A DNA stretch of 64,000 nucleotides from positions 1 to 64,000 of the forward strand of contig JAUCBJ010006756.1 in NCBI GenBank assembly GCA_032718475.1, written 5' to 3'. This document shows positions 2,177 through 41,164 of this stretch, one piece after another. Source of the stretch: Nemertoderma westbladi (taxonomy: Eukaryota; Animalia; Xenacoelomorpha). The notes under the pieces are model-generated. The model searched no databases. It worked only from the letters and a program-made list of their open reading frames with translations, and had not been told where the DNA came from. The position numbers and the translations under genes were made by a program. Positions within the stretch are counted from its first letter, which is position 1, and each line of letters begins with the position of its first letter.

Positions 2177-2241
2177 TCGTTGTCTCTTTTATTTGAAATA
2201 AAAAGTCGTTTCCTTATCGGGCCGCTAGGCCCATCACTAGT

Positions 2242-16234: not shown

Positions 16235-16508
16235 TGTAAGGGAAATACCCAAACATGAAACAGTACGACACTGTCAAGTATAATAAAACGTAAAAGGTCT
16301 CATAAACTAATAACTGTATAATATAATAAGATAGAACTGACAGGAATATAATATAACAGTATAGAACCACACAGTAAGGGACGCATCAGCTGGATAGCCC
16401 AATCACCATGATAGTCACTATGAATATAATCAACTTACAATGAGTAAACTAATAACTACTATATATGGATAATATATGACCTATCTATACACGAATATAT
16501 TTCGTACA
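16235..16508 (-). repeat. 3' LTR of element C (274 bp)
   Basis: TGTAAGGG...CGTACA, near-identical to 22602-22879; adjacent sense GGCGCGCGGGAG tract. Confidence 0.95.
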
Positions 16509-16861
16509 CTCCCGCGCGCCAAAAAATTTTATTTACACAATTAAAAATATTACAGAATTAACTATTAACCTTCATACGTACCTGATATATATTATACATA
16601 CCATAAATTAAAGGGGGTAAAGTAAAATATTTCAATTATAACAATAACGAGGTCAAAAATAACAAATATACATATAGTTATTAACATGTACTGTTTGATC
16701 AAAAAAAAATTCACTATAAATATTTCATATAGGTTTTTACAAAATTTTGCACATAAATTGGTCATACGTAAATAGGGGCTTACTTAATAAAAACTTCCAG
16801 TGCGACTATTATTTTATTTTATATTTTATTTTATTACATACGTTATAGTTTGATATACTAC

Positions 16862-19800
16862 TTATTCTGATTCGTAGTCTGAACTTGAATCATTTGTGGA
16901 CATTATTTTGATTTTTTGTTTAGCCTCTTTAGCTGCTAAACGCTGAGGTCGTTCCATTGTTTTGATATCAGTCGGGGAAGCAGCTGGTTTTGGTGTAACA
17001 TTCGCCGCTGTTATTTCACTCTCTTTAGCCGTAATTTCTAAAGGGTATAATCGTTTAACTGGTCTGGTTGTCCGCCCTTTATTGGTTCTAATGGTAACGT
17101 AACGAGTCTGGCCGTCGTTTCCAGGATGAAGTTCTAGAACCTTGGCTAATCTCCACTGTAGTCGAGGGGTGTGTTTGCTTCCTTCCACAAGAACAATGTC
17201 ACCCTCTTTTACTTGGGGTCCCTTTTTCTCGTTCCATCTATGCTGTTCACGTAATGCCAATAAATACTCGGCAGACCAACGATTTCTGAAATCCCGCAAT
17301 ATCTTCTGTAAACGGTTTAGACGATCGTTTATATTGGAGGTATTAATATAATCAGGATCCAAAAGATCGCCAATATCTGGATTACTGTCCGGAATATCAG
17401 TTAACCTATAACCACATAGTAATTGAGATGGTGTAATTGGTAGTAGGTCTTTGATATCGGAAGATACATAGGTTAGAGGTCTGTCATTGAGTATCGCCTC
17501 AACCCCTATAAGAAACGTTCTGAGTTCGCTAATAGTAAGTAACGCCTTTCCAATTACGCGTTTTATTGTAAGTTTTGTACAACGAATCATCCTTTCCCAC
17601 ATACCGCCCATCCAAGGGCTGGCCTTAGGAATAAGATCCCATTTTAACCGCTTTTCCAGCAGGTAGTCGCGAACCATAGGATCTTGTTGAATATTTAGTA
17701 GAATTTGTCTGGAAGAAGTGAAGGTGGTTGAATTATCACTTATTAGAATGGATGGGTAACCTCTTCTTCCAACAAAGGAACGGAAGGCTAAAAGAAATTC
17801 CAATGTTGAATTATCGAGAACCAATTCAAGATGAATAGCTCTGGAAACAGTGCATGTAAATAGGGCAATATAAACCTTGAATACTTCTCCATTTTGTTTT
17901 GCTGCTAAACTTCCTGTATAATCAACACCTACAGCTGAGAAAGGACGTTGAAATTGGACTCTGTAGTTAGGAAGTGGAGGAGGTAATGGAGACGCGTAAG
18001 GTTTACCTTGAATCCTAAGGCATTGTTCACATTTGCGAATCATAATTTTCACGCGTTGTCTACTAGATGGTATCCACCATCTTTGTCGAAGATATGCAAC
18101 AGTACTAGACGTACCCTCATGACCATTCCTACTGTGAGCATCTCGGATAATAAGATCTGTAAGATAGTGTTTCTTCGGTAATAATATGGGCTGCTTGGAA
18201 TTCCAATCCAAATCAGCATTGGATAATCTCCCATTGCTCTTTATAATATCGTCACTTAGAAATAACTGTAACTGTCTTACAAGAGTTGGAGTGTTAAATT
18301 TATTTTTGCTCAACAAAAATTCGATTTCCTCCCCAAAACTTTCCCGCTGAACTTTTCGAATCCACCAATGCTCAGCTGTTTTGATGTCTTTCAGTAACAA
18401 ATATGGCTTCTGTTTGGTAATTCTCGTATCAGAATTACTATGCATAAGAATGCTGCCAACTTGTTGATGTTTTAATAAAACACTTTTTCGAATGTTGTCG
18501 ATGTATTTCAAAATCCATGCAGTTACCTTCAACAGACGACTGTAACTGCTAAATAATTCCAAATTTATTGCTACTGGTTCAACTTCCGGAGGGTTAGAAG
18601 ATTCTCCAACTCCGCATACTACATCAACATCATTGTCCATACTCTTGCATTGGAGAGACAACACCTTCTGTTGTGGCCAACTGGAATGATTTATTAACCA
18701 TGGCGGACCGTGCCACCACTGGTCAGAAGATAACAAATTGTTAGCTGTTGTCCCCCTTGAAATAAGATCAGCTGGATTTTCAATCCCTTTAACATGAAAT
18801 ACCTTTGCCTCAAGCTCAGAGATAATATGATTACATTCTGTTACCATCGCCTGTACAAATGAATTCAAGGGTTTTAAAGATAGAAGCCAGCGTTGAGATA
18901 TCTCGCTATCAGTCCAAAGATAAAACTTTGGTAATAATCGCATGTGTCCATACACATTGGATACATATGATAATAACCGCAATCCTAAGTTAAGTGCAGT
19001 TAGTTCCATTTGCGGCAAAGTTAATGACTCCATAGATGATTTTATCGACTTTTCAATTAAAGCTTGTTTCTTTATAGGAACCACTTTCGATTTCGATATG
19101 ACTAATTCCGGTTTATGAATATCATCGACAATATAAATAACGGAACCATAGGCTTTACCTGAAGCATCTGTAAAAGCATGAAATGAAGACTTAGGCGAAA
19201 CCGAAAGCAATTGGCGTTTAATATTGCAATTAAAAATTGCGTGAAGATCGTTGGAAATTATTTCCCATTCATCCCTGAAACTGCCGTGTAGATTTTCGTC
19301 CCACATAACCTTTGCTTTCCATAGCCCTTGAATAAAAATTCTCGATTTTATTCCAATAGGACCAAAAATTCCGAGAGGATCGAAATACTGTGCAACATGG
19401 CTAACTATGATACGTTTTGTTAATACATCCGATTTCATAAATGGATGAGATTTGAATTCTAGAATGTCTTGCGAAAAATTCCATTTCAATCCAAGGAACT
19501 TTATGACTGGTTTAGAATGTTTCGGAGTATCACCATTGTCTATTATGACCTTTGATAATTTGGGACTGTTAGTGACCCATTCTCTTAGAGGTAGATTAGC
19601 ATCGGTAAATATTCTCTTACAGTCATAATAGTATTGAATTAGATTGGTTTCAGAGTCAAATGTTCCCTGTAAGTTATCAATATATAAATTTCTCAAAATC
19701 TCATCTATTATGGGATGTGAATAATTGTTTAAATGTTCACGAATTGTTGCACCCAAAAGGTAAGAACTACAAGTCGCACCAAAAAGGACAACCATGAAAC

Positions 19801-21634
19801 GATAAGTGTTGAATTTACTTTTTGGATCGATAGGATTTGCAGGCCACAAAAACCGGGTAACATCTCTATCAGTTTCATTTAGGCGAATCTGTAAAAATGC
19901 CTTTTCAATGTCTGCAACAACTGCAAATGAACCAGTACGAAATTGCAAAATGCACGAAATAATGTTCGGTGTAAAACAGGGACCGCTGTATAAACAATCA
20001 TTCAAACTAGCACATTTTGGACCAGCTTTTGCAGAACAGTCATAAACTATACGCAATGGAGTTGTAGTTGATTCTGGTTTAGCTACACCATGGTGTGCTA
20101 AATAATGTACTTTATCAGGTAAAATATTATTATCACACGGAACCAGTTCAATAAATTTACGTTGTAATTGGTCTGTAATAATATTATTGTAAACTGAAAG
20201 TAGTTTCGGCGTCTTACGTAATTTAGCCAAGGTACTTGCTAATCTACGTAATGCTAAATTATAGTTTGATGGTAATTTCGGATGATTTGGACGCCATGGA
20301 AGTCCTACACAATATCTACCATCAACGAATTGTAAAGATTTAATAAAGTTTGTATGCACATACTCATCTACAGGACGATTGATATTTTCTGTACTTATAC
20401 CGATACTGTCTAAATCCCACAATCTACTTAACATGTTATCTAGTTTGGTTTCACTATCATTATCTACATTATAATTTGCACCAATGGAAATTAAACACAT
20501 AGTGGTTGTGTTTACTGTAGTGCTAGTATTCACACTAGAATATGGAATTCTACCTGCGATGACGTCACCTAGCACAGATGGTACGCAATATAAACCACTA
20601 GATAATTGCTGTGCGGGTACAAATTCAAAATAATAATCAATGCCAATAATAATCCCGATATCTCTTAAATCATCACCAATAATTGGATCGGCCAATAGTA
20701 ATCCTTTAATATCTGCCCCTTTCAAACTACGTGTGCGACCAGGTATAAAAAAGCGCGGAGGTAATCTATCTACTATAAGCGCACGGACTTCTATATCTCC
20801 TACCTTTGTGGATACTACAAATTGCACAATATCATACCATTCTAATTTACCGTCAGTATTAATGCCATCAATACCAGTACATTTTTTACCCACTATAGGT
20901 AGTTTGAGCAACGCAGCTAAATCTCTTTTAATTAGACTACGTTGGGAGCCTGTATCTAATAAACTTCTATGTTTACTAGTAGTTTTATTTTCACATATTA
21001 TAGGCATATATGCTGTTGGTATAAGAGAAGCATATTTATCGTCATTAGTTATTACACTTGTCTTATTAGTAGCTACAGTAGAAGATACAACTTGTGGATC
21101 AGAATCTGAATTAACAGTTTCGTTTGATGTCGCAACATTACACGTAGAATTTTGTTTGTCACTAGAATGATTTGAGATACTTTTACCTCGGTTGTAATTG
21201 CTGGAAGTATTACCTTTAGAATGGTGATCAAAGTTACTACTTTTAGTACTTTGATCTAAATGTAATAACGTGTGATGTTTTTTGCGACATACACCACATA
21301 CACCAGAACTAGGACAAATCTCACCATGTGCATGTTTACGAAAACAATTTCTGCACAAATGTAATTGTTTAGTACGCATAAACTTATCATAGGGCAAAAT
21401 GTATTTATCACAATTACGCACTACATGATTACCTTGACATAAGTAACATTTAAAGGCCGGGTTTCTATTGCTCACACTTTGAGCTACGGGTAGTGATGTT
21501 GCAGTGCCACCGTGACGCAGCAACACTTTACTATTAGAGCAGATTATCTCGTCATCAGAATCTGCGTTGGCGCGTAACTGTTCAATTTCTTTCTGCAAGG
21601 CAGCCGCAATGAATCCAGCTGCCAATATGTGCAA
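16862..21634 (-). CDS. pol: Element C polyprotein: Zn knuckles, aspartic protease, RT, RNase H, integrase
   Basis: CYLC..H..C, CRNC, CGVC..HH knuckles; LLDTGS; ADIEKAFLQI; YIDN; FTDAS; GVDYTG, SDNSTTF, GGMWERMI; 1590 uninterrupted codons. Confidence 0.95.
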   Translation of the reverse strand: MHILAAGFIAAALQKEIEQLRANADSDDEIICSNSKVLLRHGGTATSLPVAQSVSNRNPAFKCYLCQGNHVVRNCDKYILPYDKFMRTKQLHLCRNCFRKHAHGEICPSSGVCGVCRKKHHTLLHLDQSTKSSNFDHHSKGNTSSNYNRGKSISNHSSDKQNSTCNVATSNETVNSDSDPQVVSSTVATNKTSVITNDDKYASLIPTAYMPIICENKTTSKHRSLLDTGSQRSLIKRDLAALLKLPIVGKKCTGIDGINTDGKLEWYDIVQFVVSTKVGDIEVRALIVDRLPPRFFIPGRTRSLKGADIKGLLLADPIIGDDLRDIGIIIGIDYYFEFVPAQQLSSGLYCVPSVLGDVIAGRIPYSSVNTSTTVNTTTMCLISIGANYNVDNDSETKLDNMLSRLWDLDSIGISTENINRPVDEYVHTNFIKSLQFVDGRYCVGLPWRPNHPKLPSNYNLALRRLASTLAKLRKTPKLLSVYNNIITDQLQRKFIELVPCDNNILPDKVHYLAHHGVAKPESTTTPLRIVYDCSAKAGPKCASLNDCLYSGPCFTPNIISCILQFRTGSFAVVADIEKAFLQIRLNETDRDVTRFLWPANPIDPKSKFNTYRFMVVLFGATCSSYLLGATIREHLNNYSHPIIDEILRNLYIDNLQGTFDSETNLIQYYYDCKRIFTDANLPLREWVTNSPKLSKVIIDNGDTPKHSKPVIKFLGLKWNFSQDILEFKSHPFMKSDVLTKRIIVSHVAQYFDPLGIFGPIGIKSRIFIQGLWKAKVMWDENLHGSFRDEWEIISNDLHAIFNCNIKRQLLSVSPKSSFHAFTDASGKAYGSVIYIVDDIHKPELVISKSKVVPIKKQALIEKSIKSSMESLTLPQMELTALNLGLRLLSYVSNVYGHMRLLPKFYLWTDSEISQRWLLSLKPLNSFVQAMVTECNHIISELEAKVFHVKGIENPADLISRGTTANNLLSSDQWWHGPPWLINHSSWPQQKVLSLQCKSMDNDVDVVCGVGESSNPPEVEPVAINLELFSSYSRLLKVTAWILKYIDNIRKSVLLKHQQVGSILMHSNSDTRITKQKPYLLLKDIKTAEHWWIRKVQRESFGEEIEFLLSKNKFNTPTLVRQLQLFLSDDIIKSNGRLSNADLDWNSKQPILLPKKHYLTDLIIRDAHSRNGHEGTSSTVAYLRQRWWIPSSRQRVKIMIRKCEQCLRIQGKPYASPLPPPLPNYRVQFQRPFSAVGVDYTGSLAAKQNGEVFKVYIALFTCTVSRAIHLELVLDNSTLEFLLAFRSFVGRRGYPSILISDNSTTFTSSRQILLNIQQDPMVRDYLLEKRLKWDLIPKASPWMGGMWERMIRCTKLTIKRVIGKALLTISELRTFLIGVEAILNDRPLTYVSSDIKDLLPITPSQLLCGYRLTDIPDSNPDIGDLLDPDYINTSNINDRLNRLQKILRDFRNRWSAEYLLALREQHRWNEKKGPQVKEGDIVLVEGSKHTPRLQWRLAKVLELHPGNDGQTRYVTIRTNKGRTTRPVKRLYPLEITAKESEITAANVTPKPAASPTDIKTMERPQRLAAKEAKQKIKIMSTNDSSSDYESE

Positions 21635-22533
21635 TTGGCAGCTCTGTTAATGTTGTTCCGCACATCAGCAGGCAGCTTACGCATTAACAATGCAGCGTAA
21701 ACGTAGCCGGCCGCGTCGACGTCAGCGCCCAAATTTTTTAGAGCCCGTAAATGCGACTCGTACGAAGCCCGAAAGGTTGATAAACCTTGAACAGTTCCTG
21801 CAGGTTCATCCATGTCGAAAAACGCATGTAACCGAGCCTGTACCAGTAACTCAGTATTCCCGTAAGTTTCAATTAATAGTTTGACAGCATCTGCATAATC
21901 AGAGTCTGTTCGATGAAAACCGCCTAATAATTCGGAGGCTTGGTCACTAAGACAACCGGTTAGGTAATTAAATTTCGTGGCATTACCAAGATCAGTTCGA
22001 TCGTGAACAGCGTCACGAAAACGATCCCAGAATTCGGACCACTCTAACACCTTACCTGAAAAATGTGGCAAGTTGAGGTTGGGTAGTTTATACTGTTTCG
22101 TTGGAGTTGGATGATACCCGCCATGGCTGTTGTTTGGGTTTGTAAACATGGCACCATGCTGGCCATAACCACCAACGTCATCAATAACGGAAGATGTATT
22201 CGTAGCCCCTCCAGCAACCAGTTGTGCTGTTCGGAGCAGTTTTGCGATGTTTTCGTCATAGCGACTGACTTCATCCAGCTCGTTAAATAAGTCATCATCG
22301 TCCCCGGTTTCTGTCACGAGGAGCTCGATTTTTTCACTGAATTCTCGAATGTTCTTCATTTGAACCTCCACGGAATTGATCTTAGCAAGAATCTCCTCCG
22401 TATTTGGATTCTTTGTGAACACCATCTGTCTAGTATCCATGTACAGAAGAACGTTTAATTCACCAGCAATGCGAGTCACAATAGACCTGTGCCCCCCACG
22501 CCGCCGCTTTAATTGCGTTAATGAATCTGACAT
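21544..22533 (-). CDS. gag: Element C gag (BEL-type capsid-like region), frameshifted from pol at ~21605
   Basis: KLPNLNLPHFSGKVLEWSEFWDRF...KFNYLTGCL motif typical of BEL/Pao Gag. Confidence 0.9.
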   Translation of the reverse strand: MSDSLTQLKRRRGGHRSIVTRIAGELNVLLYMDTRQMVFTKNPNTEEILAKINSVEVQMKNIREFSEKIELLVTETGDDDDLFNELDEVSRYDENIAKLLRTAQLVAGGATNTSSVIDDVGGYGQHGAMFTNPNNSHGGYHPTPTKQYKLPNLNLPHFSGKVLEWSEFWDRFRDAVHDRTDLGNATKFNYLTGCLSDQASELLGGFHRTDSDYADAVKLLIETYGNTELLVQARLHAFFDMDEPAGTVQGLSTFRASYESHLRALKNLGADVDAAGYVYAALLMRKLPADVRNNINRAANCTYWQLDSLRLPCRKKLNSYAPTQILMTR

Positions 22534-22585
22534 AATAATTATTATACAGTACAGTTTATTTTAAGTTAAATTGGCCATTTAATTA

Positions 22586-22598
22586 GGTCCAGGCACCA
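22586..22598 (-). promoter_or_regulatory. tRNA-type primer-binding site of element C
   Basis: Sense TGGTGCCTGGACC 3 nt after the 5' LTR; TGG complements tRNA CCA; cognate tRNA not determined. Confidence 0.75.
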
Positions 22599-22601
22599 AA
22601 A

Positions 22602-22879
22602 TGTAAGGGAAATACCCAAACATGAAACAGTACGACACTGTCAAGTATAATAAAACGTAAAAGGTCTCATAAACTAATAACTGTATAATATAATAAGATA
22701 GAACTGACAGGAATATAATATAACAGTATAGAACCACACAGTAAGGGACGCATCAGCTGGATAGCCCAATCACCATGATAGTCACTATGAATATAATCAA
22801 CTTACAATGAGTAAACTAATAACTACTATATATGGATAATATATGGATAATATATCTATACACGAATATATTTCGTACA
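22602..22879 (-). repeat. 5' LTR of element C (278 bp)
   Basis: Direct repeat of 16235-16508. Confidence 0.95.
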
Positions 22880-24712
22880 ACGAAATCCACCTTTGGATAA
22901 GAACTGGATAAGACTTTCAGCAACAGAAATGGCTTCTTGATGGCTGAATACTGAATGAAGGCAATCATCCACGTAAAAACTTAAAAGAATAATAACGAGG
23001 ATGGCTGTTTCGAAGAGATGTGAATGATCTTCCCCACACCTACGAAGAGTATTTGTGGCAACAGTGCTGGAGCCTCTAGCACCAAATATATGGCATAACA
23101 TTATGAATGTTTCTGTTACATCTGAGCCCTTTGCTTTCCAGAGAAATCTGAGACTATCACTGTCTGATGGAGGAACAAGAACTCTATGATACATGCTTTC
23201 AATATCACAGCTAAAGGCAACTGAGCCGATACGAAAACGTAGCAGTACACCAATGAGAGAGTTGATTAAATTTGGGCCTTCAGTTAGGTTATCATTTAAG
23301 CATGTTCCCTTGTAAGTCGCCGCACAATCATTAACGATTCTGATTTTGTTGGGTTTATTGTCATTTAGAACAAAATGATGAGGAAGATAGTAAGTTTGGT
23401 TAGAGACTGAGTCAACTTCTTCTGGAGACAAGCGTCGAGCATACCCCTGCTCTATGTACGAATCAATCTGCTGTTGATATTTGTCATAGATGTTAGGAAG
23501 CTTCTTGAATCTCTGAAGAAGACCTTGTAGGCGTTTTACAGCAAGAGGTTTATTATTATGTAAGTTTGGGGGTGGACTTTTCCACATCATAGCGACTTCA
23601 TACCTACCATTTATGAACTTGGTAGTTTTGTTTAATGTGTTGAGAGCTTCTAAGCAATCGCTGGAAGGGGATGGCTTATCATCACCAGGAAGAGAATGCA
23701 AGCAATTGCTAAGATCAGAGAATCCGAGGGAAAGTTCAATGTCAATGTTTTGTTTGATACATTGAGCTATATCTGAGTGACAGGAAGTGTCAAGATTATC
23801 AAAACACTCCACATAAGAAGAATGTTCGACTAAATTATCGCATATATCAATAGGACCCATTAAAGACCATCCAAATGGTGTTCTGACGGCAGAAGGCTGA
23901 TTACTCGGGTCTGGGGCCATAATGTACTCATTACGTTTCAGGGCTTGAGGATGATTCATACCAAGTAGGACTGAAATCATGTTGACATCAATGTCTGGAA
24001 TTGAATAAAGATCATCAGCAATTTCGTTGAGGTAAGAATAGTCACAAATTGTGACCTGTGAGATGTCTTGGGTATGAGCCTGTTGGAAATTATTTACTGA
24101 GTATACAATAGGTAGAAAAACCTGAAAATGAGGGTCTGAAGCAGGCATACCTTCGACTGGTGCAACTGAAACTGACACGACATCAACACTTCTAGCAGTA
24201 GAGTCAAATGCTGTTTTGAATGAACGATTACAGTTTTTCTTAACAAGATTTAACTTATCAGAAATTGACTGGTCAATAAAGGCACAAGTAGAACCTTCAT
24301 CTAATAGAGCATAGGTTGTAATATGCCTATCACCTGAGATTAATTTGATTGGGACAATAGATAGCCATGTCCTTTTATTGGAATGTGAGGTACTGAAAAT
24401 AGCTTGAAGGTTAGGACGAGTGATTATAATATTATCATTGATGTGATTCAAGGGTGATGAAATGCTCTTACTAGGTGTTGAAGATTTGTTTATTGATGCA
24501 ACAGCGACAGGATTAGAAGATGATACAATACTGGAAGTGGTTCCTGCCATTGATGAAGGGGTTGTAGGTTTTGTAACTTGAGGATCGTGTAAGATTGTGT
24601 GGTGTTTGCTACCATTGCATACCTTACAAAGTAATTTTGAATTACAACTTGAAAGCACATGTTTAAATGATAAACATCTGTGACATCCCTTCTCTCTGGA
24701 ATGAAATGCCAC
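22880..24712 (-). pseudogene. pol: Element B pol, 5' part: knuckles, protease, RT
   Basis: CHRC, CKVC..HH, LLDEGS, SCDIESMYHRV, FYVDD; truncated by insertion of C. Confidence 0.92.
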
Positions 24713-27177
24713 CTGTCCTTGGGTGTTTTGCGCAGGAGCTCAGGACACTCACTTAGAAAGTGTTTCTCTTTACAGATACGACATGTGGGTAGTTGAAACT
24801 TATCATTAAGATTGGAAACAACATTTATGGAATTATCGAGAGTTGTAGATAATGTGGTAACCTTTGGCTTATCTACAGCATTAGAATTTGCTGATGAGCT
24901 ATACCGTTGATTGGAAGACTTGAATGTACTGCTGAATTGAGAATACGATGAGGGTTGTCGATAAAAGATTGGATCATTAACTTCATCAGCGATTCGCTTA
25001 ATGAAGTGAGCCACATTAATAAGACCTGGTTCAAGGTTATGCATTTCACGAAAGCGCATGGCCTCCCTAAGCCACCTGTTATATAGATGATCTGGAAGAT
25101 TATTGACAATTTTACGGAGGTTGTCTGGTGAATTCATAAGACAGTTGTTTTCTAATTGTTCCAAGATAGCTAGCTTATCCAAGATCTTATCAGCATAATC
25201 CCTAAGAGAAGTGCTTTGTTTTTGCCGTGAACCTGAAAGATCAACAGGACTTGTAAGTTCGGCAATTATTGATTCAATAATAGTGCTTGGGTGACCGTAC
25301 CTCTCATGTAGGCATTCCCAAGCTTTACTGTAACCATTAGCTGGTCCTTCATAACGGGCTACTAAGTCATGGGGTTTTCCTTGGGTAAACTGTAAGATAT
25401 AAGATAATTTCTCTGTGTCAGAAAGGGGTCGGACATCAATCTGGTTTCTGAAAGCTGATACAAAAGAAATGTATTTGGATACTTGACCATCGAAAATCGT
25501 TGGTTTAGGAAGTGGTAATGATATCCTTGCATTGAGACTTTCAAAGGCGGAGAGAGTGGCATCCATATTACTAGCGGTGTTGTTGCTATGTAAATTTGGA
25601 GCACCAGTAAAATTGTTTGATGCGATGGAATTATATGGGTTCCTAGTTGAATTATTGTTTGTATTACCAGTATAGGATAAACCAGGCTGAGGTATCACAG
25701 ATTGGTTAATATTGATTTGTGACTGGTTATTTGTGAACATGTAAGGAATTGACTGAGAAACGTTATTAGCAACAGGATAAGAATTGAAGTACTCAGTTGA
25801 CATGATTGGCGAAAGATTTGGGATAAAATTTTGTTGCGCAGAGGTAAGTGTATTTCCCCCCATAAAAGGGTTGGGAGGTACTTCTACACCGCGGGACATG
25901 ATTGAGGAAGTTGTTGTTGTAGGTATTTGGTTTGATGGAGCTGCATCTGTACCTCCGATGGTCATATGAGTTTTGGGTATTGAACTGGTTGATTGTTGTC
26001 CTGGCAAGATTGGGGATGGGGAAGGAATAAAGCTTTGGACATCAGGGTTCAGGGTTACAGACTTTACTGGGCCTGCTGGTTTGATGACCAAAGTTTCACT
26101 GAAATCAGTACCAGGTGAATTCTGAGGTGACTCTTGAAGGATATTTGAAGTTATTTTTGAACTGGAATGTTCAGGAAAAATATTATCGATCTGAGTTGCC
26201 ATCTCAGGATTCAAAAGTTTTAATTCCTGAGCAGCAAGACTTTCATTCAACTCAGCAATTTGTATTAGGCCACTACGTTGTTTATCCTGTAGTTGTTTGG
26301 TTATTTTAGATTGTTCAGCATCCAAATCGCACCGTAATTTTGTTAGTTTGCGTTCACTACTAGCCTTAAGAAATTTTAGAGTAGCATTTGCTGAAACTGA
26401 GCTGGCTGAGTGGCTTGCTGAGGATTTGTGGCTAGATTTACTGGAATTCTTGCTGATAATGGAATTCGACTTTTTTGATCTATGTAATACAGAAGACTGA
26501 CATAAGGACTCTTTAAAGAAAGGCAATTCAGATGATAAAAAACCCTTTGTCATATCAGGGTCTAAAAAGGTAGATGAACTTTGAGGACCCTTAAAACTCA
26601 TTACACTACCCGTACCAGAACCAACTTCATCTGAACATTTTGGTGCCAATACAGATAGTGGTTCAGATTGGTCACATTTGTAATGGTATATATTATTCAT
26701 GCGTTTCAGTTTTTCAGATAAAATCGTAACTTCCCCATTGTATTTACTTTGTAAATTTTCTGCTACTTCAGAATAGCCTAAATCATAAAGTTTGAGTATT
26801 GCTGTATTATATTCTTCCGAAATTGAATGGATCATAGATTTACATTTATTTAAATTAATTTCTAAAGAGTTTAAGTTTGACATTTCTAAACTTGATTCTT
26901 TATTGAAGGAATTATAACATTTCGAAAAATGAGATTTGTAACCAGATACTGACCGCTTTACAGAATTTATGACATCGACTTCCGATGTCGGGGGCCTAGA
27001 TCTAGGCCTACATACAGGGCCATCATTCCTACCTTTGTTACCAACATCCTGTTCCTGATTGGTTTGGATCCCACCTGAATCAGATAATCCATGTCCACTG
27101 GGATTGGTTGGCAATCCCAGGGTATCACTATTGATGACAGTTGCATCAAGATCTTCTTCGCCCGTCGTCCTCGACAT
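24490..27177 (-). CDS. gag: Element B gag (long Ser/Asn-rich N-terminus plus BEL capsid-like region), frameshifted at ~24695
   Basis: PTIFDGQVSKYISF...EKLSYILQF...ERYG; CRICKEKHFLSEC knuckle. Confidence 0.88.
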   Translation of the reverse strand: MSRTTGEEDLDATVINSDTLGLPTNPSGHGLSDSGGIQTNQEQDVGNKGRNDGPVCRPRSRPPTSEVDVINSVKRSVSGYKSHFSKCYNSFNKESSLEMSNLNSLEINLNKCKSMIHSISEEYNTAILKLYDLGYSEVAENLQSKYNGEVTILSEKLKRMNNIYHYKCDQSEPLSVLAPKCSDEVGSGTGSVMSFKGPQSSSTFLDPDMTKGFLSSELPFFKESLCQSSVLHRSKKSNSIISKNSSKSSHKSSASHSASSVSANATLKFLKASSERKLTKLRCDLDAEQSKITKQLQDKQRSGLIQIAELNESLAAQELKLLNPEMATQIDNIFPEHSSSKITSNILQESPQNSPGTDFSETLVIKPAGPVKSVTLNPDVQSFIPSPSPILPGQQSTSSIPKTHMTIGGTDAAPSNQIPTTTTSSIMSRGVEVPPNPFMGGNTLTSAQQNFIPNLSPIMSTEYFNSYPVANNVSQSIPYMFTNNQSQININQSVIPQPGLSYTGNTNNNSTRNPYNSIASNNFTGAPNLHSNNTASNMDATLSAFESLNARISLPLPKPTIFDGQVSKYISFVSAFRNQIDVRPLSDTEKLSYILQFTQGKPHDLVARYEGPANGYSKAWECLHERYGHPSTIIESIIAELTSPVDLSGSRQKQSTSLRDYADKILDKLAILEQLENNCLMNSPDNLRKIVNNLPDHLYNRWLREAMRFREMHNLEPGLINVAHFIKRIADEVNDPIFYRQPSSYSQFSSTFKSSNQRYSSSANSNAVDKPKVTTLSTTLDNSINVVSNLNDKFQLPTCRICKEKHFLSECPELLRKTPKDRWHFIPERRDVTDVYHLNMCFQVVIQNYFVRYAMVANTTQSYTILKLQNLQPLHQWQEPLPVLYHLLILSLLHQ

Positions 27178-28009
27178 GCTGTGTTCCTGCGTTGTCAGTA
27201 CAGCAGTATATACCTGATTGCGAACCCAGTCAGCTGCAGCTCGTAGAACGGAATTGATCTCTGAAGCTGAACGTAGTTATTCGCGGTACCGGTATTATCG
27301 ATGGTATCGCGGTTTGAATTAAAGGCCTAAGGGTCTAATATTTAGGGGAGTATGGGCTGACAGGCTGACATAGGCTTAGCAGAAGATGGAAGCTTAAAGG
27401 CAGTGCAGTAGGCTATATGTCTGATATGTACGGCAATACTGTAGGCAATACTAGGCCTATAGGGCCTAATAATATTGTACCGGTACGTATTTATCAAGTT
27501 CCTGAGTTCTGATTACAACAGTACAAACTAATAGTTGGATAAGCGTATGCTAGAAAACTGACCTGAATTTATGTATAGCTGTCTGGCCTACCAGCAGGTT
27601 TCTAGGCCTACCTACAAAATAATCTTGAAAGTCTGATATTGGACTATACAGATACAGAGATACATTTACAGGAACATAGGCCTATGCAATCTCGATTACA
27701 GTACACAATAGGATGATAGGGCAGTCAGGCAGTAGGACCATATGGGGCCTAGGCTGCTAGATACCATAAGGCTTATATTGTAATAAGCATATCTGCAGAT
27801 CTGCCTATATATGTATATATATATCTGATGTACCGGTCTGCCGGTACTACTGCTACTGTAGTAGGCAGGGCTGCAGGGTGAAGGAATGCCGGAATATTTG
27901 AAATGTCTAACTGTCTGAATATGTGTAGAGTACCGGTAAGGTAGCTTAAAAAATTAAATTTGGTTATAATGGAATGACTGAATCATATTCGATTAAAATT
28001 TGGTTATAA

Positions 28010-28591
28010 TGTTCGCGGCGGAACTACTGAACTGAGTAATCTGATGATGAACTGAAATGTGTACTGTATCTGCATTCTAATTCTATTGAGAACAAACTTG
28101 GAAACAAAAAAACGCCGCTAAACTATGTTCCATTTTGGTTGATCGCTAATTCTGTCTGCATGGACTGATGGAAAAGGTTTAAAGACAGTTGTTGTGACAT
28201 CTTACATTTTATTTGGAAATGTAGTAATTGTAATTACCATAGGCGAATGAATATGACTAAACTAAAGTATCTAAATATTATACTGCCGGACTGGATATTA
28301 TCTAAAGTAAAGATCTACTAAGGCTGCAATGTCTGAATGTAAAAGAAAGGGTGCTGAATTCTGAATGAAGGAGTACTGAAGTAGGAAAGCGGAAAAGGCA
28401 GAAAAAGTAATAACCAAATTTGTGGGAAAAATGTTGTGATTGAAATAGAATACAGAATGAATCGGAAAGTCTGATGGTTGAGCTTTATATACGGTCTGAA
28501 TCTGAATGCTGATTGGTTACTCTATTCTGAGACATACTGTACAGTATGTCGAATAAATATATTTGTTGAAAATGGCATTTCGCCGATGACA
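28010..28591 (-). repeat. 5' LTR of element B (582 bp)
   Basis: Direct repeat of 11856-12428 with one short replaced segment near 28095-28112. Confidence 0.95.
28455..28518 (-). promoter_or_regulatory. Putative core promoter in the B LTR (CCAAT, TATATAAA, Inr-like TCATTC)
   Basis: Sense CCAAT ~28512-28516, TATATAAA 28491-28484, TCATTC 28460-28455; spacing fits Pol II, function inferred. Confidence 0.55.
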
Positions 28592-31500
28592 GGAAGAGTA
28601 TCTTGCCTTCCATAGTTTCCGGAGAGTTCTCTGTCTCTTTCCAGTAAACATAAACGACCAACTGGGCGATTGAGCTGCTGTGTCTCGAAGACAATTCCCG
28701 GTTTCTTAAAGTTACGTTGCATGACGACGAGTTCTACCGATCGCACCAAACCATCATCCGAGATATGAGTCTCGATGATACGACCTGTCTGCCACTGCTT
28801 ACGTGGAAGATCTGAATCCACAATAAGGACCATGTCTCCAGCGCTGACGTTTTCTTGCTGCGCAAACCACTTAGTTCGAAGTTATAGCGTAGGCAGATAA
28901 TGTTTTTCGAAATGGTCAGCGAAACGACGGGATAACAACTGCATAAGTTGCCAAGTTTGCCGGCAGTATTCGTCTCCGTCCGTGATTTCCGATCGTGGGA
29001 GCATGGCTACAGGTTTCTTCAGTAGGAAGTGCGCGGGTGTCAGCGCTTCCAGGGAATCGGGACTCGATGAGACTGGCATAAGCGGTCTCTCGTTGAGATA
29101 GGCGGCGATTTCCTCCATTAACGCCTGCAAAAGTTCGTCGGTGAGATACGCGCGGCACGGCACTATAAAGTGAAATGCGGTCTTCACGCTCCTGATTAAT
29201 CTCTCACAACTTCCTCCCCACCAAGGGGCGTCGGCGGCGTTGAAGGTCCAGCTAGACGCTGTTACCCTTAGCTGATCGTCCACCTGTCTTTGGTTCCAAT
29301 CCTTGACGTAAGCCTTGATTTCATTGTTGGCACCAATGAAGTTAGTTCCCTTATCAGATCTCATCGTGTTACTAGTTCCAAAGCGAGCGATCTGTCGGCG
29401 TAAGCTCAATATGAAGCTATTGGTAGGTAAATCGTTCACCATATCAAGATGGATAGCTCTACAAGTCATACAGACAAAGATGACACACCATCTCTTGACT
29501 ATAGTCCTAGCACGATATACTTCAATAGGGCCAAATAGATCCACACCGGTATTAGTAAAGGGTGGTTCATAGAAGCTTACTCGTTCCCTAGGTAATTCTG
29601 CCTCTCGCTGTGTTAAAGGCCTACTGAATGCTTTCCTACAGGGTATGCAGTTCCTAAGAACTTGGTTCAGAGCTCTACGGGGTTTATAAAAATAATAGCG
29701 AGTTTGAATTTCGCTAAGAACTCGTTCTCTACCAGCATGATAAAGCTTACTGTGAACATCTACAATCATCTTGATTTGTATTTCAAGATTTCTAATGAGT
29801 ATGGGAAACTGAGTGTCAAAGGATAATGGAGCATTAGTTAGTCTTCCTCCAACACGTATTAACCCATCTATCATTGTGCTAGAGAAACGATCCCTTAAGC
29901 GCATCTGTGGATTTCTCAACAACAGGAAATACTTATCGGAATCCTCATAGCATTGCAGGAGTCTCAGTATCTGCTTATTGGTTTCTTCATGCTCCTGGTA
30001 ACTGATCTTCTCCTTCAGAAACCTGTCGGATATCTTGTATTTGGGAAGATCTTTAACAACATGGACCTGCGCAGATGTCAGTGGAGCAGTATCACTAGTG
30101 GTCTTCGTCCTGGAGTAGTGATGATGAAAACATCGCTTTAAATATGTAACGGCCTTACAGAGCCGATTCCAGGAACTATAATGATGTATCGCTCTCTGCA
30201 GGAGAGGTGAGAGTCCTTGCGAGACGTCTGGTATTCCAGATTTCCAATCCCTCTCTCCTAACCAGTCTGGAGTATCTATCAGTTCTTGTGGAGTTGCTCC
30301 CCTGGAGGCGATGTCGGCCAGATTAATCGTTCCGGGGCAATGTCTCCATTGATCTATCTTCGTGCGACTAAATATAATGGCTACTCTGTTGGTAATGAAG
30401 ACGCTGAACTGACAGACTTCATTGGGTAAACTTCATCGAGTAAAGCATCGGTCCAATAGACAGTTTTCTCCAGTGGATAGTCGATCTGTTCTGTTACATT
30501 CCATCCGATGGCTGTAGCGTATAGAGCCGCCTTTAACTCCGCTCGAGGAACTTTCAACTTGTTGTTTATCAAGGCCTTAGAGGTAACCAAGGTGACCTTG
30601 ATTCCATCCGGAGTTTCAACTCTCAGGTAGGCTACTATACCTATTCCCATATCGCTGGCGTCTCCAAACACATGGAGTTGATAAGAATACGTAGGGAGAA
30701 CATGACCAAAATATGAATGGGAAATTATAAAGTTCTCGATGGCTGGTAGATAATCTTCCCATTTCATCCACTTCTTTAATAGTTCTCCCTTAAGTGGATC
30801 GTCCCATGAGTGGTTTTCAAGCCACATTTGTTGTACTAAACTCCGAGCAATCAATATAACTGGGCTAATAAATCCCAATGGATCGAAATAAGTGCTCAGG
30901 ATACTTAGACAAATCCGTTTAGTCCGAACTGGATTATCTCGCTGTTTTAGCTGGAAAAACAGGATATCTCTCTCTGTGTCCCATTTCAAACCAAGTGTCT
31001 TGGTTTCTGGAAGATCGTCTTTGATTAGGTCTAGATCTTTAACTCCTCGATCTTCTACCGGGATCGATTCCAGAAACTCACGGGAGTTGCTGGTGAATTT
31101 AGTTAATCGAAATCCACCTCTTTTTAAGCACTCTACCATTCCTTTGGCGACATCAATGGCTTCTTCCACTGATGGGAGGGACTTTAAATTGTCGTCCATG
31201 TATATATCCCGTTTGATGTTGTCGATCACCTCTTTAGAGAAGGCGTCCCGGTTGTCATCAGCAGTGGTGCGCACTACTGAGCAGGCGTTTGAAGGGCTCG
31301 AGATGATCCCAAAAGCCTGGATGGTCATCCAGTACTCCACCGGTTTCTGGTTGAGGTCTCCCTCAGGCCACCACAGAAATCGTAGGCTGTCTCGATCCCT
31401 ATCCAGCGCCTTAACTTGTAAGAACATGCCTATATCTGAGGCAAAAGCGATTGAATATTGTCGTAATCTTAAGAGTATTCCCAACAAGGATTGGAGTAAG

Positions 31501-33590
31501 TTGGGTCCTGGCAACAACTCGGAATTGAGGGATTGGCCCATGTAGAGGGCGGAGCCGTCAAATACTACCCGGACTTCGTTGGGTTTACTGGGTTTGGGAA
31601 CGTAATGATGTGTAAGATAGTACGTTCTCGCAGTTATGGGTGTTTCTTCTGGTACTCGCTCCGCATATCCCTTGTCAATAAATTTCTTCAACTGAATTTT
31701 GTACATTTCCTTAGCTGAAGCATTTGCCGTAAGGCGTCGATGTAGTTGCGCAAATATTTTCTCCGCCAAAGGTCGGTTGTTTATAAATATAGGTTCTCGC
31801 TTTCGAAATGGCAGACCAATTTCATATCTAACTTGATCTTTAAGAAAAAGTGTAGTTGTTTCCTGTATCTGCTTGGCTCTTTCTTCTTCTACTGATAGGG
31901 CCTTATCGTAGGAATTGGGCTCTACAGCCTCTTGAGTAAAGAATCGTACGGCATGTTCATCCCGAGTCTTCACGTTGTAGCGAACTATCACGTCATTCAG
32001 TTCGCCGTTATAGTCGACTGGTCCTGATGGACGAATGAGGAGTTGACATAGGTTCACTTGGTTTTGCCAAGTTTCGTTTTCCGTAAGGAGGTCGATGGTA
32101 TTCTCCTTGTCGAAGAGTTGGTGGATATCGTCATTATCTGAGGAGTATGGTGTTCCCTCAGTTGTGTCGTCTACCTCACTGCTCTCCGCTTCCCATTCAC
32201 TTACCTGGTAGACCCGTTCTTTGGGTAACCTTTCCATGAGAGTTCTATGGGAAGGGCCAGTAAAGTACCAACCTACTCTAGTTCTTCCCGCATAGGTTTG
32301 TAGTGGTTGCGGTTGAGCAGGCCGTTTCTCCAATGTCTCAAGCACCTCATGCGCATTTTGGACGATGAGTATTTGCACTCCAGGGTAGTCTGTGTTGAAT
32401 CTAGGTATCTTATGCTGCTGGGTGAAATCGTCCTCATCCCAGTTATAAGGTTCCACTTGGCTGGTAGCGAAGTTCTTTATCGCCACCATTTTTACTGACC
32501 TTATACTGTGTTCTCCTAGTTCATCCTGGGGGGTGGACAACGCACCTACATAGTAATCTGCAATTACTGTAGATTTCCAAACCTGCATAATTCCTGACAT
32601 GTTTAACTTAGTTCGGAACTTGGGTTGTCCAGCAAAGATGTCTTCGGCTAGTTCTTTGTTGATGAATGTTCCTGTGCTGCCGGAGTCAAGGAGGGCGTTC
32701 ACTATATAACTCTTTTTAGGCCCGTGGACTCTCAACTGCACTACGGGAAATTCTCGGATTCCTACATTGGAAGTTGGTGCTTTCCAAGATGGTTGTCGGT
32801 CAGGAGCAGTTGGGGGAAGCTCACTATCGGTTTCTTTCTCATACGTAAGTGCTCGATACACTGCGGTATTTATTAGGTAACAGGATTCGTTTTCGTCGGA
32901 GAATTCATCCGTATAGAATCCTTCCATCTCAGAACTTTGGTCCGTGTTGTTCACATCACTGAATTGGACATGTAGTTCGGGCTCACTTACCTGACTCGGG
33001 CTGTTTCTTTCGAATTCAGTGTGCAACAAGATATGATGTTTCGTGCCGCACTTTGCACACCTTGCGTCAGAGTAACAGGTTCGCCGTTGGTGTCCTTGTC
33101 TGAGGCAATTATAACACAACCGCTTATCCCACATGACTTCACGTCTATCTTGTAGTGATTTCTTTAAAAATTTATCACACACACTTAAATGGTGGGGCCC
33201 GTCGCACAGCGCACAATTTGGTTTGATGTTACTCACCTTACCTTGGGTAACGTTGTGCACTCTCGTTCTTTCCTCGGGCTTTCTTCCGTGAACTCTATTA
33301 GGAGACGTAGGAGGAGTTTTTGTTACCTGTTCTCTCCTGTCATTGGTTCGAGACTTAAATTTACTTACGTCTTTAGGCGCTTTGTTGACATAGTAAGATC
33401 TTTCTGTGTCTTTCCCGCTGTCCTCTTCTTGAGAAGCCTGGCTTTCGCCATCGTCTGTATAACACACTGGTGTTACCTTTCTCCTAGAAACGGGTTTCTC
33501 ACTTACCTTATTTTCCGGTGTCTTCTCTCTGGACTGCTTTAGGAGCTGTAATTTTACTTCTCCATCTAAGAATGACATGAGATCGGCCAT
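28592..33590 (-). pseudogene. pol: Element A pol (knuckles, protease, RT, RNase H, integrase) with several stops and frameshifts
   Basis: CALC/CYNC/CAKC knuckles, LLDSGS, YMDD, VFGDAS, GVDLFGP, SDKGTNF, GGSCERLI; the last ~16 codons resume beyond B at 11850-~11802. Confidence 0.93.
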
Positions 33591-33602
33591 GGTAGGGTCT
33601 TG

Positions 33603-36600
33603 TCATTGTTGTTCCATCATATATAACACTTTCTTATCCCAGCGTGTACCTACTCCACCCTTTGGTAAAGTAGATGCTACGGCTCCAATAACCATAGAAC
33701 TCTGATATTCATGAGACTTACCTAGCCAATCTAATTGTCTACAGATCTCCTGAATCTCATCGGAAAACTCTATAATCCCGCTGCTAATGAACTTTCGGGG
33801 CGCTACCAATTTTGCATACAAATACCTAGCTATGTTATTCCTATTACCATACCTGATGTTTAGTGTATCCCAAACTTGTCTTAATCCATCTGGATGTCCA
33901 ATAAACTTTAACGCCATTAACTTGGGAGATCCTTCCAAGCACTCAATGAGGAATCTAAGTTTCTCTCCGTTAGATAGCACAGAGTTCTGTATGTTATCTT
34001 TATAATATTCATTAAAAGGTAACCATTTCATCTCATCTCCATTGAACTTGACGATCTCTCCCACTTTACCGCTTGACGGGCTTCGGTTCTAGCCATTTGA
34101 CGCGTAAAACTTTCTTGGGCCATCGTGTTATTTAATATCGAGTTATCGGTATATAAATTTCTCGGATTATGATCAGGTCTATAAGGAATATCATTGTCAA
34201 CAGGTTTATAATTACCCCTAATAGGGTTCACTATAGGAGTTTTTACTTCACTAGCAGTATAGATGCGTGTAGGCTCCACACCTTGCGCATGAAATACTTC
34301 AGACCTAACAGGTTGACACATTGTTACCGGGGTTGGTGGTATACCCCTTTGGGTATTTACTAATTTATCGCGTTCTAACGCGATACTCTGCTGCACTTCT
34401 TGCAACTCTAACTTACTTTCCCTTACTGTGCCCTTGAACTGCTGAACAGTCTCCTGCATCTGCCCGAGCAGGAGATCCATCCCCCGCCGTCTCTCATCCA
34501 CCCACTCGACCGCCGAAGCGGGAGCCGCCAACATAGTAGCGGGTGGACGAGGGACAACGGGCGACAAATCATTAATATTTCGCTCGGAGTCCAGGACAGG
34601 AACTGTCTCAGGGGCCGTTCTGCTGGGCACAGGTAGTTTAGTACTGTGCAAAGGGAATTTAGAGGTAGGTTCTGGGAGTACAGGTGTCTCTATCACCGAA
34701 GGGGTGGCTTCGAGAACAGGCCTAATTATTTCAGGCTCATCTATTATAGTAGGGAGTCTTGCTACCCTAATAATTTTGTCTGTGGGTTCTGTACTACCTA
34801 AGTCTGTGCTAGCTAGTTGCCTTCTAACAGCTGGGGGCAAATCAGGCAATTTCTGACGGTGGGGCATTCTTCTATGCCTGCTTAGACGAGATCTATTTCT
34901 TCCGCCTTCAGGATCGGTGGTATCGCCTTCATCAGATGATGTAAATCCCTGCCTTTTGGGAGTAGATAGACTTATCATCTGCATTTGACTAGCTGTTAAC
35001 TGTTTATTTATGCAGTCTTGCTTCTCTTGAAGATTTTCCAACTCTAGTTGGGTGGTCTCTTCAGACGCTCTCCGTTCTGCTTCCGCCACTGCTAATTTTC
35101 TTTCCGCTTCTGCCGCTGCCACTGCCGCTTTTCTTTCCACTTCAGCCGCTGCCTCTGCTGCTTTTCTTTCCGCTTCTGCCGCTGCCTCTGCCGCTTTTCT
35201 TTCCACTTCTGCCTCTGCTGCTGCCGCTGCTGCTATCTTTCTGTCTTCTATACGTTTTTTCTTTACTTGTTCTTCTTGGACTCTAGCGATGCGGAGGCGT
35301 TCATCAAATTTAGCTTGGTTCGCAGCTAACATTTCCGCATCTATTGCATCCAACACAAGCTTGGCTCCTTCACTATTAGGGCGAAGTCCAGCCAGCCGTC
35401 TCCTCAACTCTTCATCACCTAGAAATCGTTGATAGTCTGACAGATAGATGTCAATAGCGTCCCTCTGCTGCGGTTTCTCTGCTGTCGCTTCGCTTTCCAC
35501 TTGAGAAAAGGTAGCGTCTGTTGATTCTCCATGGGTTGAGCGCTCAGCCAGCTGAGATTTCCACTGGGCCATTCCTTGAACCTTAAGACCCACCCGCTGG
35601 AACCAAGTCTTTATGGCAACTTGCAACGACGTGTATTGTCTTCTTTTCGAAGCTTCCTCAAAGGCAGATAAGATTAGTCTGATTCTTAGAATTCTTTCTC
35701 TAACTTGATAAAGCAGCTCTCCCTGCTCTTGAGGTCCTTGGCGTTGTTGAAACAGTTGTTCCTCATCATTAAATCATTAATATTTCGCTCGGAGTCCAGG
35801 ACAGGAACTGTCTCAGGGGCCGTTCTGCTGGGCACAGGTAGTTTAGTACTGTGCAAAGGGAATTTAGAGGTAGGTTCTGGGAGTACAGGTGTCTCTATCA
35901 CCGAAGGGGTGGCTTCGAGAACAGGCCTAATTATTTCAGGCTCATCTATTATAGTAGGGAGTCTTGCTACCCTAATAATTTTGTCTGTGGGTTCTGTACT
36001 ACCTAAGTCTGTGCTAGCTAGTTGCCTTCTAACAGCTGGGGGCAAATCAGGCAATTTCTGACGGTGGGGCATTCTTCTATGCCTGCTTAGACGAGATCTA
36101 TTTCTTCCGCCTTCAGGATTGGTGGTATCGCCTTCATCAGATGATGTAAATCCCTGCCTTTTGGGAGTAGATAGACTTATCATCTGCATTTGACTAGCTG
36201 TTAACTGTTTATTTATGCAGTCTTGCTTCTCTTGAAGATTTTCCAACTCTAGTTGGGTGGTCTCTTCAGACGCTCTCCGTTCTGCTTCCGCCACTGCTAA
36301 TTTTCTTTCCGCTTCTGCCGCTGCCACTGCCACTTTTCTTTCCACTTCAGCCGCTGCCTCTGCTGCTTTTCTTTCCGCTTCTGCCGCTGCCTCTGCCGCT
36401 TTTCTTTCCACTTCTGCCTCTGCTGCTGCCGCTGCTGCTATCTTTCTGTCTTCTATACGTTTTTTCTTTACTTGTTCTTCTTGGACTCTAGCGATGCGGA
36501 GGCGTTCATCAAATTTAGCTTGGTTCGCAGCTAACATTTCCGCATCTATTGCGTCCAACACAAGCTTGGCTCCTTCACTATTAGGGCGAAGTCCAGCCAG

Positions 36601-37620
36601 CCGTCTCCTCAACTCTTCATCACCTAGAAATCGTTGATAGTCTGACAGATAGATGTCAATAGCGTCCCTCTGCTGCGGTTTCTCTGCTGTCGCTTCGCTT
36701 TCCACTTGAGAAAAGATAGCGTCTGTTGATTCTCCATGGGTTGAGCGCTCAGCCAGCTGAGATTTCCACTGGGCCGTTCCTTGAACCTTGAGACCCACCC
36801 GCTGGAACCAAGTCTTTATGGCAACTTGCAACGATGTGTCTTGTCTTCTTTTCGAAGCTTCCTCAAAGGCAGATAAGATTAGTCTGATTCTTAGAATTCT
36901 TTCTCTAACTTGATAAAGCAGCTCTCCCTGCTCTTGAGGTCCTTGGGGTTGTTGAAACAGTTGTTCCTCTAATCGCTCCAAAGAGCTGAAGAATCCCTGT
37001 ACATATCCTGCTGCCAACCTCTTCCACACAGCTGGATCACTAGTGTCCTTTGTCACTCCCATCCTGTGTATGTCTTCCCAGGCAGCTTCCGATAAGTCAA
37101 ACGGGAGTCCGGGTCCGGGGAAGTTCCATTGCGACTCGACAATAGACTTCAGTTCCTCCCTTGTGTATCCCGCAAAACTATCCTTGGTCGATCGCTTACT
37201 TCTCGCCCAATCAATTTGGTGTTCCTCCACCGCAATCAATACCCTAGTGAGTACGGCTGCAGGAAGGATGAGAAGGGGATCCGAATAAACCGCATCTGCC
37301 ATCTTTGCTCCACGCTCGGGTGTCAGCTCTACAGTATCCGAACTACTGGAGCTGTCGTGCCGCTGAGAAATAAGTTCTCGGCTCGAGTGTTGCTGCTGTT
37401 TAACAGCTGCTTCTTGGTCCCGCTTGACTTGAGCCCGAGTGCCTATGATAGACCTATGGTGTTTGACTAGCCTAGGGTCTGATACTATTACTGGAGGGAT
37501 GACTTTTCTTACAGTAGGAGGTGAGTTGAACTTCGGTCTCAAATGTTCAGCACTCCTATCTGGGTCACAGATGGTTGTGTCTAGGAGACTGTCTGACAGG
37601 TTTTGCTTTGTGTCAGACAT
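33603..37620 (-). pseudogene. gag: Element A gag with Ala/Glu-rich coiled-coil repeat, disrupted by an internal duplication
   Basis: IVKFNGDEMKWLPF...EKLRFLIECL...IRYG; AEAERKAAEAA repeats; ORFs 37620-35686, 35626-34028, 34064-33603. Confidence 0.85.
34566..36969. repeat. 1199-bp tandem duplication in A gag with 6-bp filler
   Basis: 34566-35764 matches 35771-36969; filler ATCATT at 35765-35770. Confidence 0.93.
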
Positions 37621-37749
37621 GTTTGTTTGTACAGTTGAATGCCTACTGCTATATTACAGTTAAAGCAAGTCTAGTAATTCAGTATCAACTGTTAGCCTAG
37701 TAATTAATTACCGATATCGTTACTCAGTGTAACGTGATATATTTACAAT

Positions 37750-38185
37750 ATATTAGAATACCGATATGCACTTATAGTATATATATAAGTATTATTACAG
37801 ACTAGTTTTGTCACAGAATACCGGTATATAATTTCAGCGCAAATATATAGAATATATAATAAGCCTATCGTGAATACCGGTATACAGCTTACACTTATAG
37901 TATATATAAGTATAATTATAGTCTAGAATTAATTACAGAATACCGGTATATAATTTCAGCACAAATATATAGAAATATATAATAAGCCTATCGTGAATAC
38001 CGGTATACAGCTTACACTTATAGTATATATAAGTACAATTATAGACTAAAATTAATTACAGAATACCGGTATATAATTTCAGCACAAATATATAGAAATA
38101 TAATAAGCCTATCATGAATACCGGTATATAATTTCAGCACAAATATATAGAAATATAATAAGCCTATCGTGAATACCGGTATATC
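37750..38185. repeat. ~55/120-bp tandem repeats in the 5' UTR of A built on GAATACCGGTATA
   Basis: Seven TACCGGTA cores in ~370 bp. Confidence 0.85.
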
Positions 38186-40627: not shown

Positions 40628-41164
40628 CTTTGTCCAAATTCGATGGGGTTTTTATTTTTCAACTTAATTCGATGTCCTCTTTCAGCCTATCCATGTTTCA
40701 AAAACCCAAACAGCGCCGTTCAAAAATTAATTTTTTCTAGTTCTAGAATTTTACAAATTTCAAAAAAGTTGCAGTATTTTATTAACGCCTGTACGGAATT
40801 CGATAGCGTTTTCGATTTTTATATTAAACACAATATCCTGAATCTCATTAGCCTAGTTTCGCGTCACCAATGCCAAGACTTCATATTTTTTGAGGAAAAT
40901 TTTTCTAGAATAATTTTTATTTAATTACATTTATAGCGATTTCTTATTACTGGTTGCACATGAATTGAGTTTTCAATTTATTAACTAAACACGATATCGC
41001 GCATCGCACCAGCGTGGTTTCGAAATTCCAAAACGAGGTCTTCACTAGTTGCAGGTCGATTTTGTTCTGGAATTGAGCAACTAATATTAGATCGAATTTA
41101 TTAATAATTATTGTATGAAATATGATTGTATTTTTACATAATTATTAGTTCTATCAAATATTAG

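Follow-up and report, generated by a model that had tools for sequence, protein, structure and literature searches.

A lineage of BEL/Pao retrotransposons from marine animals probably starts minus-strand DNA synthesis from its own RNA, with the primer-binding site (PBS) pairing to a segment of the element's own LTR and not to a tRNA. We hold this reading, which comes from comparing sequences, with good confidence. The signature shared by these elements is the absence of TGG at the primer site, together with a perfect Watson-Crick match of 11 to 16 nt that starts 0 to 6 nt past the LTR end. The letters of this self-match differ between families, and most relatives have it across a GTAAG...AG junction within the LTR. 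Self-priming is a known mechanism; what would be new is its presence in a superfamily described as tRNA primed, for which the Belpaoviridae profile (ICTV, PMC8742986) specifies an 18-nt PBS that pairs with tRNA-Arg or tRNA-Gly of the host. If true, this would bring self-priming into the third LTR superfamily, probably by independent origin, and would explain why PBS-based annotation overlooks these elements.

Three nested elements and their primer sites

The window, the whole 64-kb stretch of Nemertoderma westbladi DNA that was analyzed (contig JAUCBJ010006756.1), contains three nested BEL/Pao elements, A, B, and C, all on the minus strand, as are the features described below. Element A is outermost, B lies where A's integrase frame ends, and C lies within the reverse transcriptase (RT) of B. 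All three matched the Pfam domains DUF1759 and Peptidase_A17 along with integrase domains, and A and B carried DUF1759, Peptidase_A17, Integrase_H2C2, and rve in the PR-RT-RH-IN order typical of BEL/Pao. In a protein search, RT identity was 39 to 49% to polyproteins in which that Pfam set also occurs. Both A and B have two LTRs with TG...CA ends, a target site duplication (TSD), and a polypurine tract (PPT), as BEL/Pao elements do, and the LTR pairs of A, B, and C were 96 to 100% alike, depending on the segment. Between A and B, RT identity was 38%, with no alignable similarity in the LTRs. By these sequence features, A and B belong to BEL/Pao (Belpaoviridae) despite the absence of a tRNA-type PBS; the superfamily label was kept because it rests on protein phylogeny, and the PBS is reported as an exception. 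The window elements resemble the Belpaoviridae of the profile (PMC8742986) in LTRs of 0.2 to 1.2 kb, a PR-RT-RH-IN gag-pol, a PPT, an animal host, and a 5-bp TSD, but A and B differ in lacking a tRNA PBS, whereas C has the TGG type. ARAGORN found no tRNA genes in the 64-kb window, and a pattern search of viral contigs returned 17 matches, none of them a relative. The flanks (1 to 4500 and 40630 to 64000) consist of dispersed repeats and satellite arrays of 10 nt and 22 nt.

The ends of element B are fixed by its LTR pair (97.1% identical) and the TSD CTTCC (28592 to 28596 and 11851 to 11855). Its 5' LTR (TGTCATC...GCGAACA, 582 nt) occupies 28010 to 28591, and its 3' LTR, preceded by a G-rich PPT, occupies 11856 to 12428. 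Between them lie gag-protease-RT in two frames (22856 to 27276), with DUF1759 and an RT homologous to BEL/Pao polyproteins that is interrupted by C, and an RNase H-integrase region in three broken frames (13619 to 16385) with Peptidase_A17, Integrase_H2C2, and rve. Three contigs from run X4 exit the window at 28592 into letters that match those beyond the 3' LTR of B, as would be expected of an empty site.

On the minus strand, the LTR edge of B reads CCGCCGCGAACA, then TT, then ATAACCAAATTT, with no TGG within 5 nt of the LTR. The PBS position (27996 to 28007), which begins 2 nt past the LTR, is the exact reverse complement over 12 nt of the candidate self-primer segment AAATTTGGTTAT in the predicted R region of the LTR (28410 to 28421; 12246 to 12257 in the 3' LTR). 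A second exact copy of the PBS 12-mer lies 40 nt downstream (27956 to 27967). Only four places in the window have these letters: 12246 and 28410 carry the 12-mer on the plus strand, and 27956 and 27996 carry its reverse complement. The first-pass annotation of this DNA had described B as lacking a TGG primer site, with a 12-mer complementary to its own LTR and repeated nearby; the sequence after the 5' LTR confirms the former, and the latter proved exact to the base. The comparison with shuffles that it proposed also came out in its favor: a 12-nt match at an offset of 0 to 4 appeared in 3 of 20,000 dinucleotide-shuffled LTRs (run with LTR ends off by one base), and 4 of 1,000 shuffles did as well when spliced matches over any GT-AG were allowed. 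The duplex with the PBS is short and AU rich (−10.5 kcal/mol). A splice-built primer was rejected for B, where the best spliced match was 5 nt.

A chance match, or a single duplication in a decayed AT-rich element, would suit a self-match of only 12 AT-rich nucleotides in an old element (LTRs 97% alike) with another copy close by. The shuffle tests argue against it, as does independent recurrence in A and 21 further families, for the most part across splice junctions absent from the DNA, and we consider this explanation scarcely credible.

Element A, overlooked in the first-pass annotation, provided a second case. Its 5' LTR (884 nt, ending GCGAACA; TSD CAAAG) spans 39744 to 40627, its 3' LTR, split by two later insertions, spans 4611 to 8468, and its gag-pol frames, with DUF1759, Peptidase_A17, and Integrase_H2C2, are broken (28522 to 37653). 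The LTR edge reads ACA followed directly by ATAACAGTTATA (39732 to 39743), which over 12 nt is the reverse complement of the candidate self-primer segment TATAACTGTTAT in its own LTR (40187 to 40198; 5336 to 5347 in the 3' LTR), and there is no TGG within 5 nt of the LTR. Shuffles matched A in 17 of 20,000 cases (again with LTR ends off by one base) and in 13 of 1,000 with spliced matches allowed. The PBS positions of A and B have ATAAC in common, and the other seven positions differ, each being matched in the element's own LTR. A splice-built primer was rejected for A too, since the best candidate, 11 nt with a weak GTTATT donor, was shorter than the contiguous 12 nt.

Contigs of family A contained a variant at PBS position 8 (39736) at 74% (X1) and 60% (X3) of depth, and another at position 12 (39732) at 31% (X1) and 53% (X3) of depth. 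No compensating change at 40194 or 40198 was present among the 40 of 56 variant rows listed for the family, which counts against self-priming. Contig depth near A's LTR segment was far below depth at the LTR end, and many subfamilies may therefore be unrepresented there.

Element C (16233 to 22879; LTRs at 22602 to 22879 and 16233 to 16508; TSD TTCGT), nested in the RT of B, served as an internal control. TGG next to the LTR is the mark of a mature tRNA primer. The LTR edge of C reads ACA, then TTT, then TGGTGCC, with the TGG-type PBS starting at 22598, and its best self-match was 5 nt, a length reached in 281 of 1,000 shuffles.

Self-matches in metagenome relatives

A protein search with the RT of B returned 684 proteins, and among the 120 listed, the named relatives came from corals, anemones, echinoderms, one hemichordate, one mollusc, and one nemertean. 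We infer that this host range would suit the Sinbad/Sailor lineage. An alignment of 30 of these proteins and three window frames yielded 79 marine metagenome loci, taken from the best 80 of 558 matches in a scan of 15 of 64 metagenome parts.

In five of these loci, the 3' end of the LTR was fixed by a second LTR copy. All five members of this strict set had a self-match, and none had TGG. Four matches were spliced over a GTAAG...YAG intron: 12 nt over a 149-nt intron in L011 (1 of 1,000 shuffles), 12 nt over 123 nt in L017 (5 of 1,000), 15 nt over 76 nt in L012 (0 of 1,000), and 11 nt over 105 nt in L008 (33 of 1,000). The match in L026 was contiguous over 11 nt (29 of 1,000). A locus with a truncated 5' LTR (L060) was outside the strict set. 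In several related families (L008, L017, and L026), the LTR ends in TA, not CA.

A blind scan extended the comparison to 51 loci, 28 of the 79 having been dropped for lack of a gag start or too little upstream DNA. A match had to be at least 11 nt long and lie 0 to 6 nt from a YA; five donor motifs were allowed, and G-U pairs were not scored. Under these rules, 27 of 51 loci matched, compared with an expectation of 5.9 from shuffles and a count of 5 in a parallel-complement control. Twenty of the matches existed only across a GTAAG...AG junction in the LTR, all of them using the GTAAG donor though five donor motifs were permitted. Five were contiguous (L026, L031, L034, L040, and L065), and two were chance-like (L003 and L029) and are probably due to chance. 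Matches at L009, L023, L031, L034, and L042 are weak singly, as their windows are long (null, 0.2 to 0.45), but the total of 27 is not. After manual inspection, the acceptor filter was loosened from 10 to 8 and then 7 pyrimidines of 15, with the null using the same filter; stricter first blind scans with other window limits had missed cases found by eye. The count leaves out L038 (10 nt, 37-nt intron), L024 (donor half only), and L004 and L036 (without the LTR part). Among the inspected portion of the 24 loci without a match, many had no LTR in the contig. For the lineage, the strict-set and blind-scan shuffle tests together refute chance.

Merging at 80% RT identity left 16 spliced and 5 contiguous families. 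The expectation that sister families would carry the match in different letters was borne out in A and these 21 metagenome families, and by sequence comparison the self-match is a lineage-wide feature of these BEL/Pao relatives, not a peculiarity of B. The base following the primer was C in 18 of the 21 metagenome families, as expected from a defined cut site; it is T in A and B, a point against the reading for these two. In a tree with its midpoint root on C's long branch, contiguous forms were scattered among spliced ones. For example, contiguous L040 and spliced L057 formed a clade with support of 99/87, and the last 7 nt of the primer are common to both. Elements A, B, and C formed long branches whose placement is unsure.

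In both A and B, the letters at the LTR edge and PBS are repeated 40 to 60 nt downstream (27956 to 27967 in B; in A, 14 nt of the LTR-end/PBS junction at 39667 to 39680). None of 17 metagenome loci reached 8 of 9 identities to a second PBS copy within 200 nt, and the repeat was rejected as a feature of the lineage.

Primer position and routes of priming

A motif scan of B, L008, L011, and L012 found the same order in each LTR: a TATA-like box, the primer segment, A(A/T)TAAA, and the LTR end. In B, the predicted start site follows from a TATA-like box, TATATAAA (28484 to 28491), and an Inr-like TCATTC (28455 to 28460), and AATAAA lies downstream of the primer segment (28208 to 28213 in the 5' LTR; one base differs in the 3' LTR). 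With the TATA-like box on one side of it and the poly(A)-like signal on the other, the segment is probably in R, and so would be on both RNA ends and away from the predicted cap. The first-pass annotation had likewise placed the segment of B off the extreme 5' end, and these motifs agree, putting it about 38 nt past the predicted start.

Given such a transcript, the RNA would fold so that the R segment sits on the PBS, and would then be cleaved immediately past the segment's 3' end; by analogy with Tf1, the RNase H of the element would probably make this cut. The new 3' end on the PBS would point into U5 and prime reverse transcription, the short minus strand would jump to the 3' R, and plus-strand synthesis would copy the primer back into the PBS. 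With the primer copied into the PBS, the PBS and LTR segment would therefore change together, and the PBS could spell a spliced junction. Such a primer would keep a 5' leader of about 40 nt (B) to more than 100 nt, unlike Tf1. In intron-bearing families, R upstream of the cut would be copied from the RNA 3' end, which must be unspliced, and the intron would survive for that reason. Splicing at the 3' end would give rise to intronless families, and A, B, and five metagenome families may be such forms. The fullest version of this proposal, that a whole animal BEL/Pao lineage exchanged tRNA priming for an internal self-primer with a leader, assembled in most families by the host spliceosome, and that A and B lost the intron via their own reverse transcription, seems to us evenly balanced between right and wrong.

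Within self-priming, the primer could also come from the 3' copy of R, in an RNA circle, or be supplied in trans by a short LTR transcript that has been spliced. This would be compatible with a segment flanked by the TATA-like box and the poly(A)-like signal, and thus present on both RNA ends; an intron that is spliced for priming yet inherited would require two differently processed copies. A cap-proximal intron would, however, be likelier to be spliced, and the Tf1 precedent is in cis and 5' (PMC10085805), which leaves a 3' or trans primer a doubtful, if reasonable, possibility.

A second variant within self-priming follows the classical geometry of Tf1, with transcription starting at the first base of the segment, the first 11 to 16 nt serving as the primer, and the TATA-like motifs unused. 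RNA starting at the segment formed the PBS duplex with a probability of 0.98 in A and, when the second copy was excluded, 0.90 in B, where PBS pairing wins, and the motif scan found no TATAWAW upstream of the segment in A, L017, or L026. Against this geometry, B, L008, L011, and L012 have TATA-like motifs 70 to 165 nt ahead of the segment, and first exons of merely 4 to 9 nt would need splicing. We regard a start at the segment itself as unlikely. As a point against self-priming in B, the segment paired with the second copy at 0.45 versus 0.01 with the PBS when the full predicted leader was folded; the global fold was no better than shuffles (z, 0.11). Side helices of the Tf1 type scored in B (17 of 500 and 3 of 500), and neither scored clearly in A, L011, L017, or L026, leaving the three-duplex pretzel of Tf1 unsupported as a general feature of the lineage.

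The pairing might instead be a selected structural RNA element, acting in packaging, dimerization, translation, or a splicing switch, while some host RNA or tRNA fragment does the priming. Pairings between LTR and leader are common in retroelement leaders. Half-tRNA priming without TGG also occurs in copia lineages (PMC6317226). The matches, however, begin within 0 to 6 nt of the LTR edge, the very place at which a primer has to end, and reach 11 to 16 nt without counting G-U pairs. The letters differ among 23 families, so that each would need its own host RNA, which argues against a host-RNA primer. A structural role combined with host-RNA priming is thus quite improbable in our estimation. 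Covariation of PBS and LTR segment, together with a PBS that spells a junction found only in spliced RNA, is, we infer, the strongest argument for priming over structure; selection on the helix could also produce it.

If the spliced-only primer is real, it would tie reverse transcription to RNA processing. With a spliced 5' R and an unspliced 3' R both required, splicing would be a switch for reverse transcription. The elements might also be beyond the reach of tRNA-fragment interference at the PBS. Each family predicts an exact splice junction and cut site.

Known self-priming systems and further observations on family A

Precedents for self-priming are the Tf1/sushi lineage and, as predicted self-primers, the Tcn1 and TAR lineages (PMC6317226, PMC10085805, and PMC4600332), and PMC11042837 describes copying of the Tf1 primer into PBS DNA. 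Elements A and B resemble Tf1, Tf2, and Tj1 of the Tf1/sushi group in having no tRNA site, an LTR segment complementary to the adjoining PBS, and the need for a cut to create a 3' end. They differ in that Tf1/sushi elements are Ty3/gypsy chromoviruses, whereas A and B have BEL/Pao domains and no chromodomain match, and in that the primer of the BEL/Pao lineage is predicted to be internal to R and, in most relatives, spliced together. The Tf1 PBS has the letters ATAAC (PMC11042837), with which the PBS of A and B begins; this is probably a coincidence, as other families differ. For Tcn1 (Ty3/gypsy) and TAR (Ty1/copia), the available sections of Neumann et al. 2019 (PMC6317226) describe at least 10 nt, 0 to 5 nt past the LTR, complementary to the 5' LTR, and the matches of A and B lie within these limits. 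Tcn1 and TAR are, in contrast, plant elements of other superfamilies, and those sections report contiguous matches only.

A literature search found no paper on BEL/Pao self-priming in the portions of the literature available, although supplements, Repbase Reports, GyDB, or subscription journals may hold a remark. Three BEL/Pao surveys (PMC554778, PMC3118150, and PMC6238403) do not mention tRNA, PBS, or priming in their main text, the available parts of PMC3601003, PMC6934838, PMC8220671, and PMC12440569 contain nothing on BEL/Pao self-priming, and PMC7472051 had no match for terms describing it.

Several minor features were seen in family A. Summed contig depth (X1 to X3) over A (28574 to 40800) was about 100 to 1,000 times that over the start of B (27700 to 28573), and this family without a tRNA site looks very abundant in this organism, depth not being a copy number. 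Many A-family contigs skip about 1,768 nt of RT-RNase H (window positions 30356 to 32125) and have 11 to 12 other letters instead; these contigs represent a probable deleted, nonautonomous subfamily. One X3 contig has a joint that skips 68 nt (40118 to 40187) from precisely the 3' end of the primer segment in A onward, with very low depth at 40144 to 40185. This skip, seen in one contig with unassigned letters between, is possibly the mark of a cut site. Between A's pol and 3' LTR (8547 to 10113) lie three broken minus-strand frames of 151 to 176 amino acids with no Pfam match, a possible remnant of an extra gene. The gag region of A also contains a 1.2-kb tandem duplication (34566 to 36969), with copies 99% alike.
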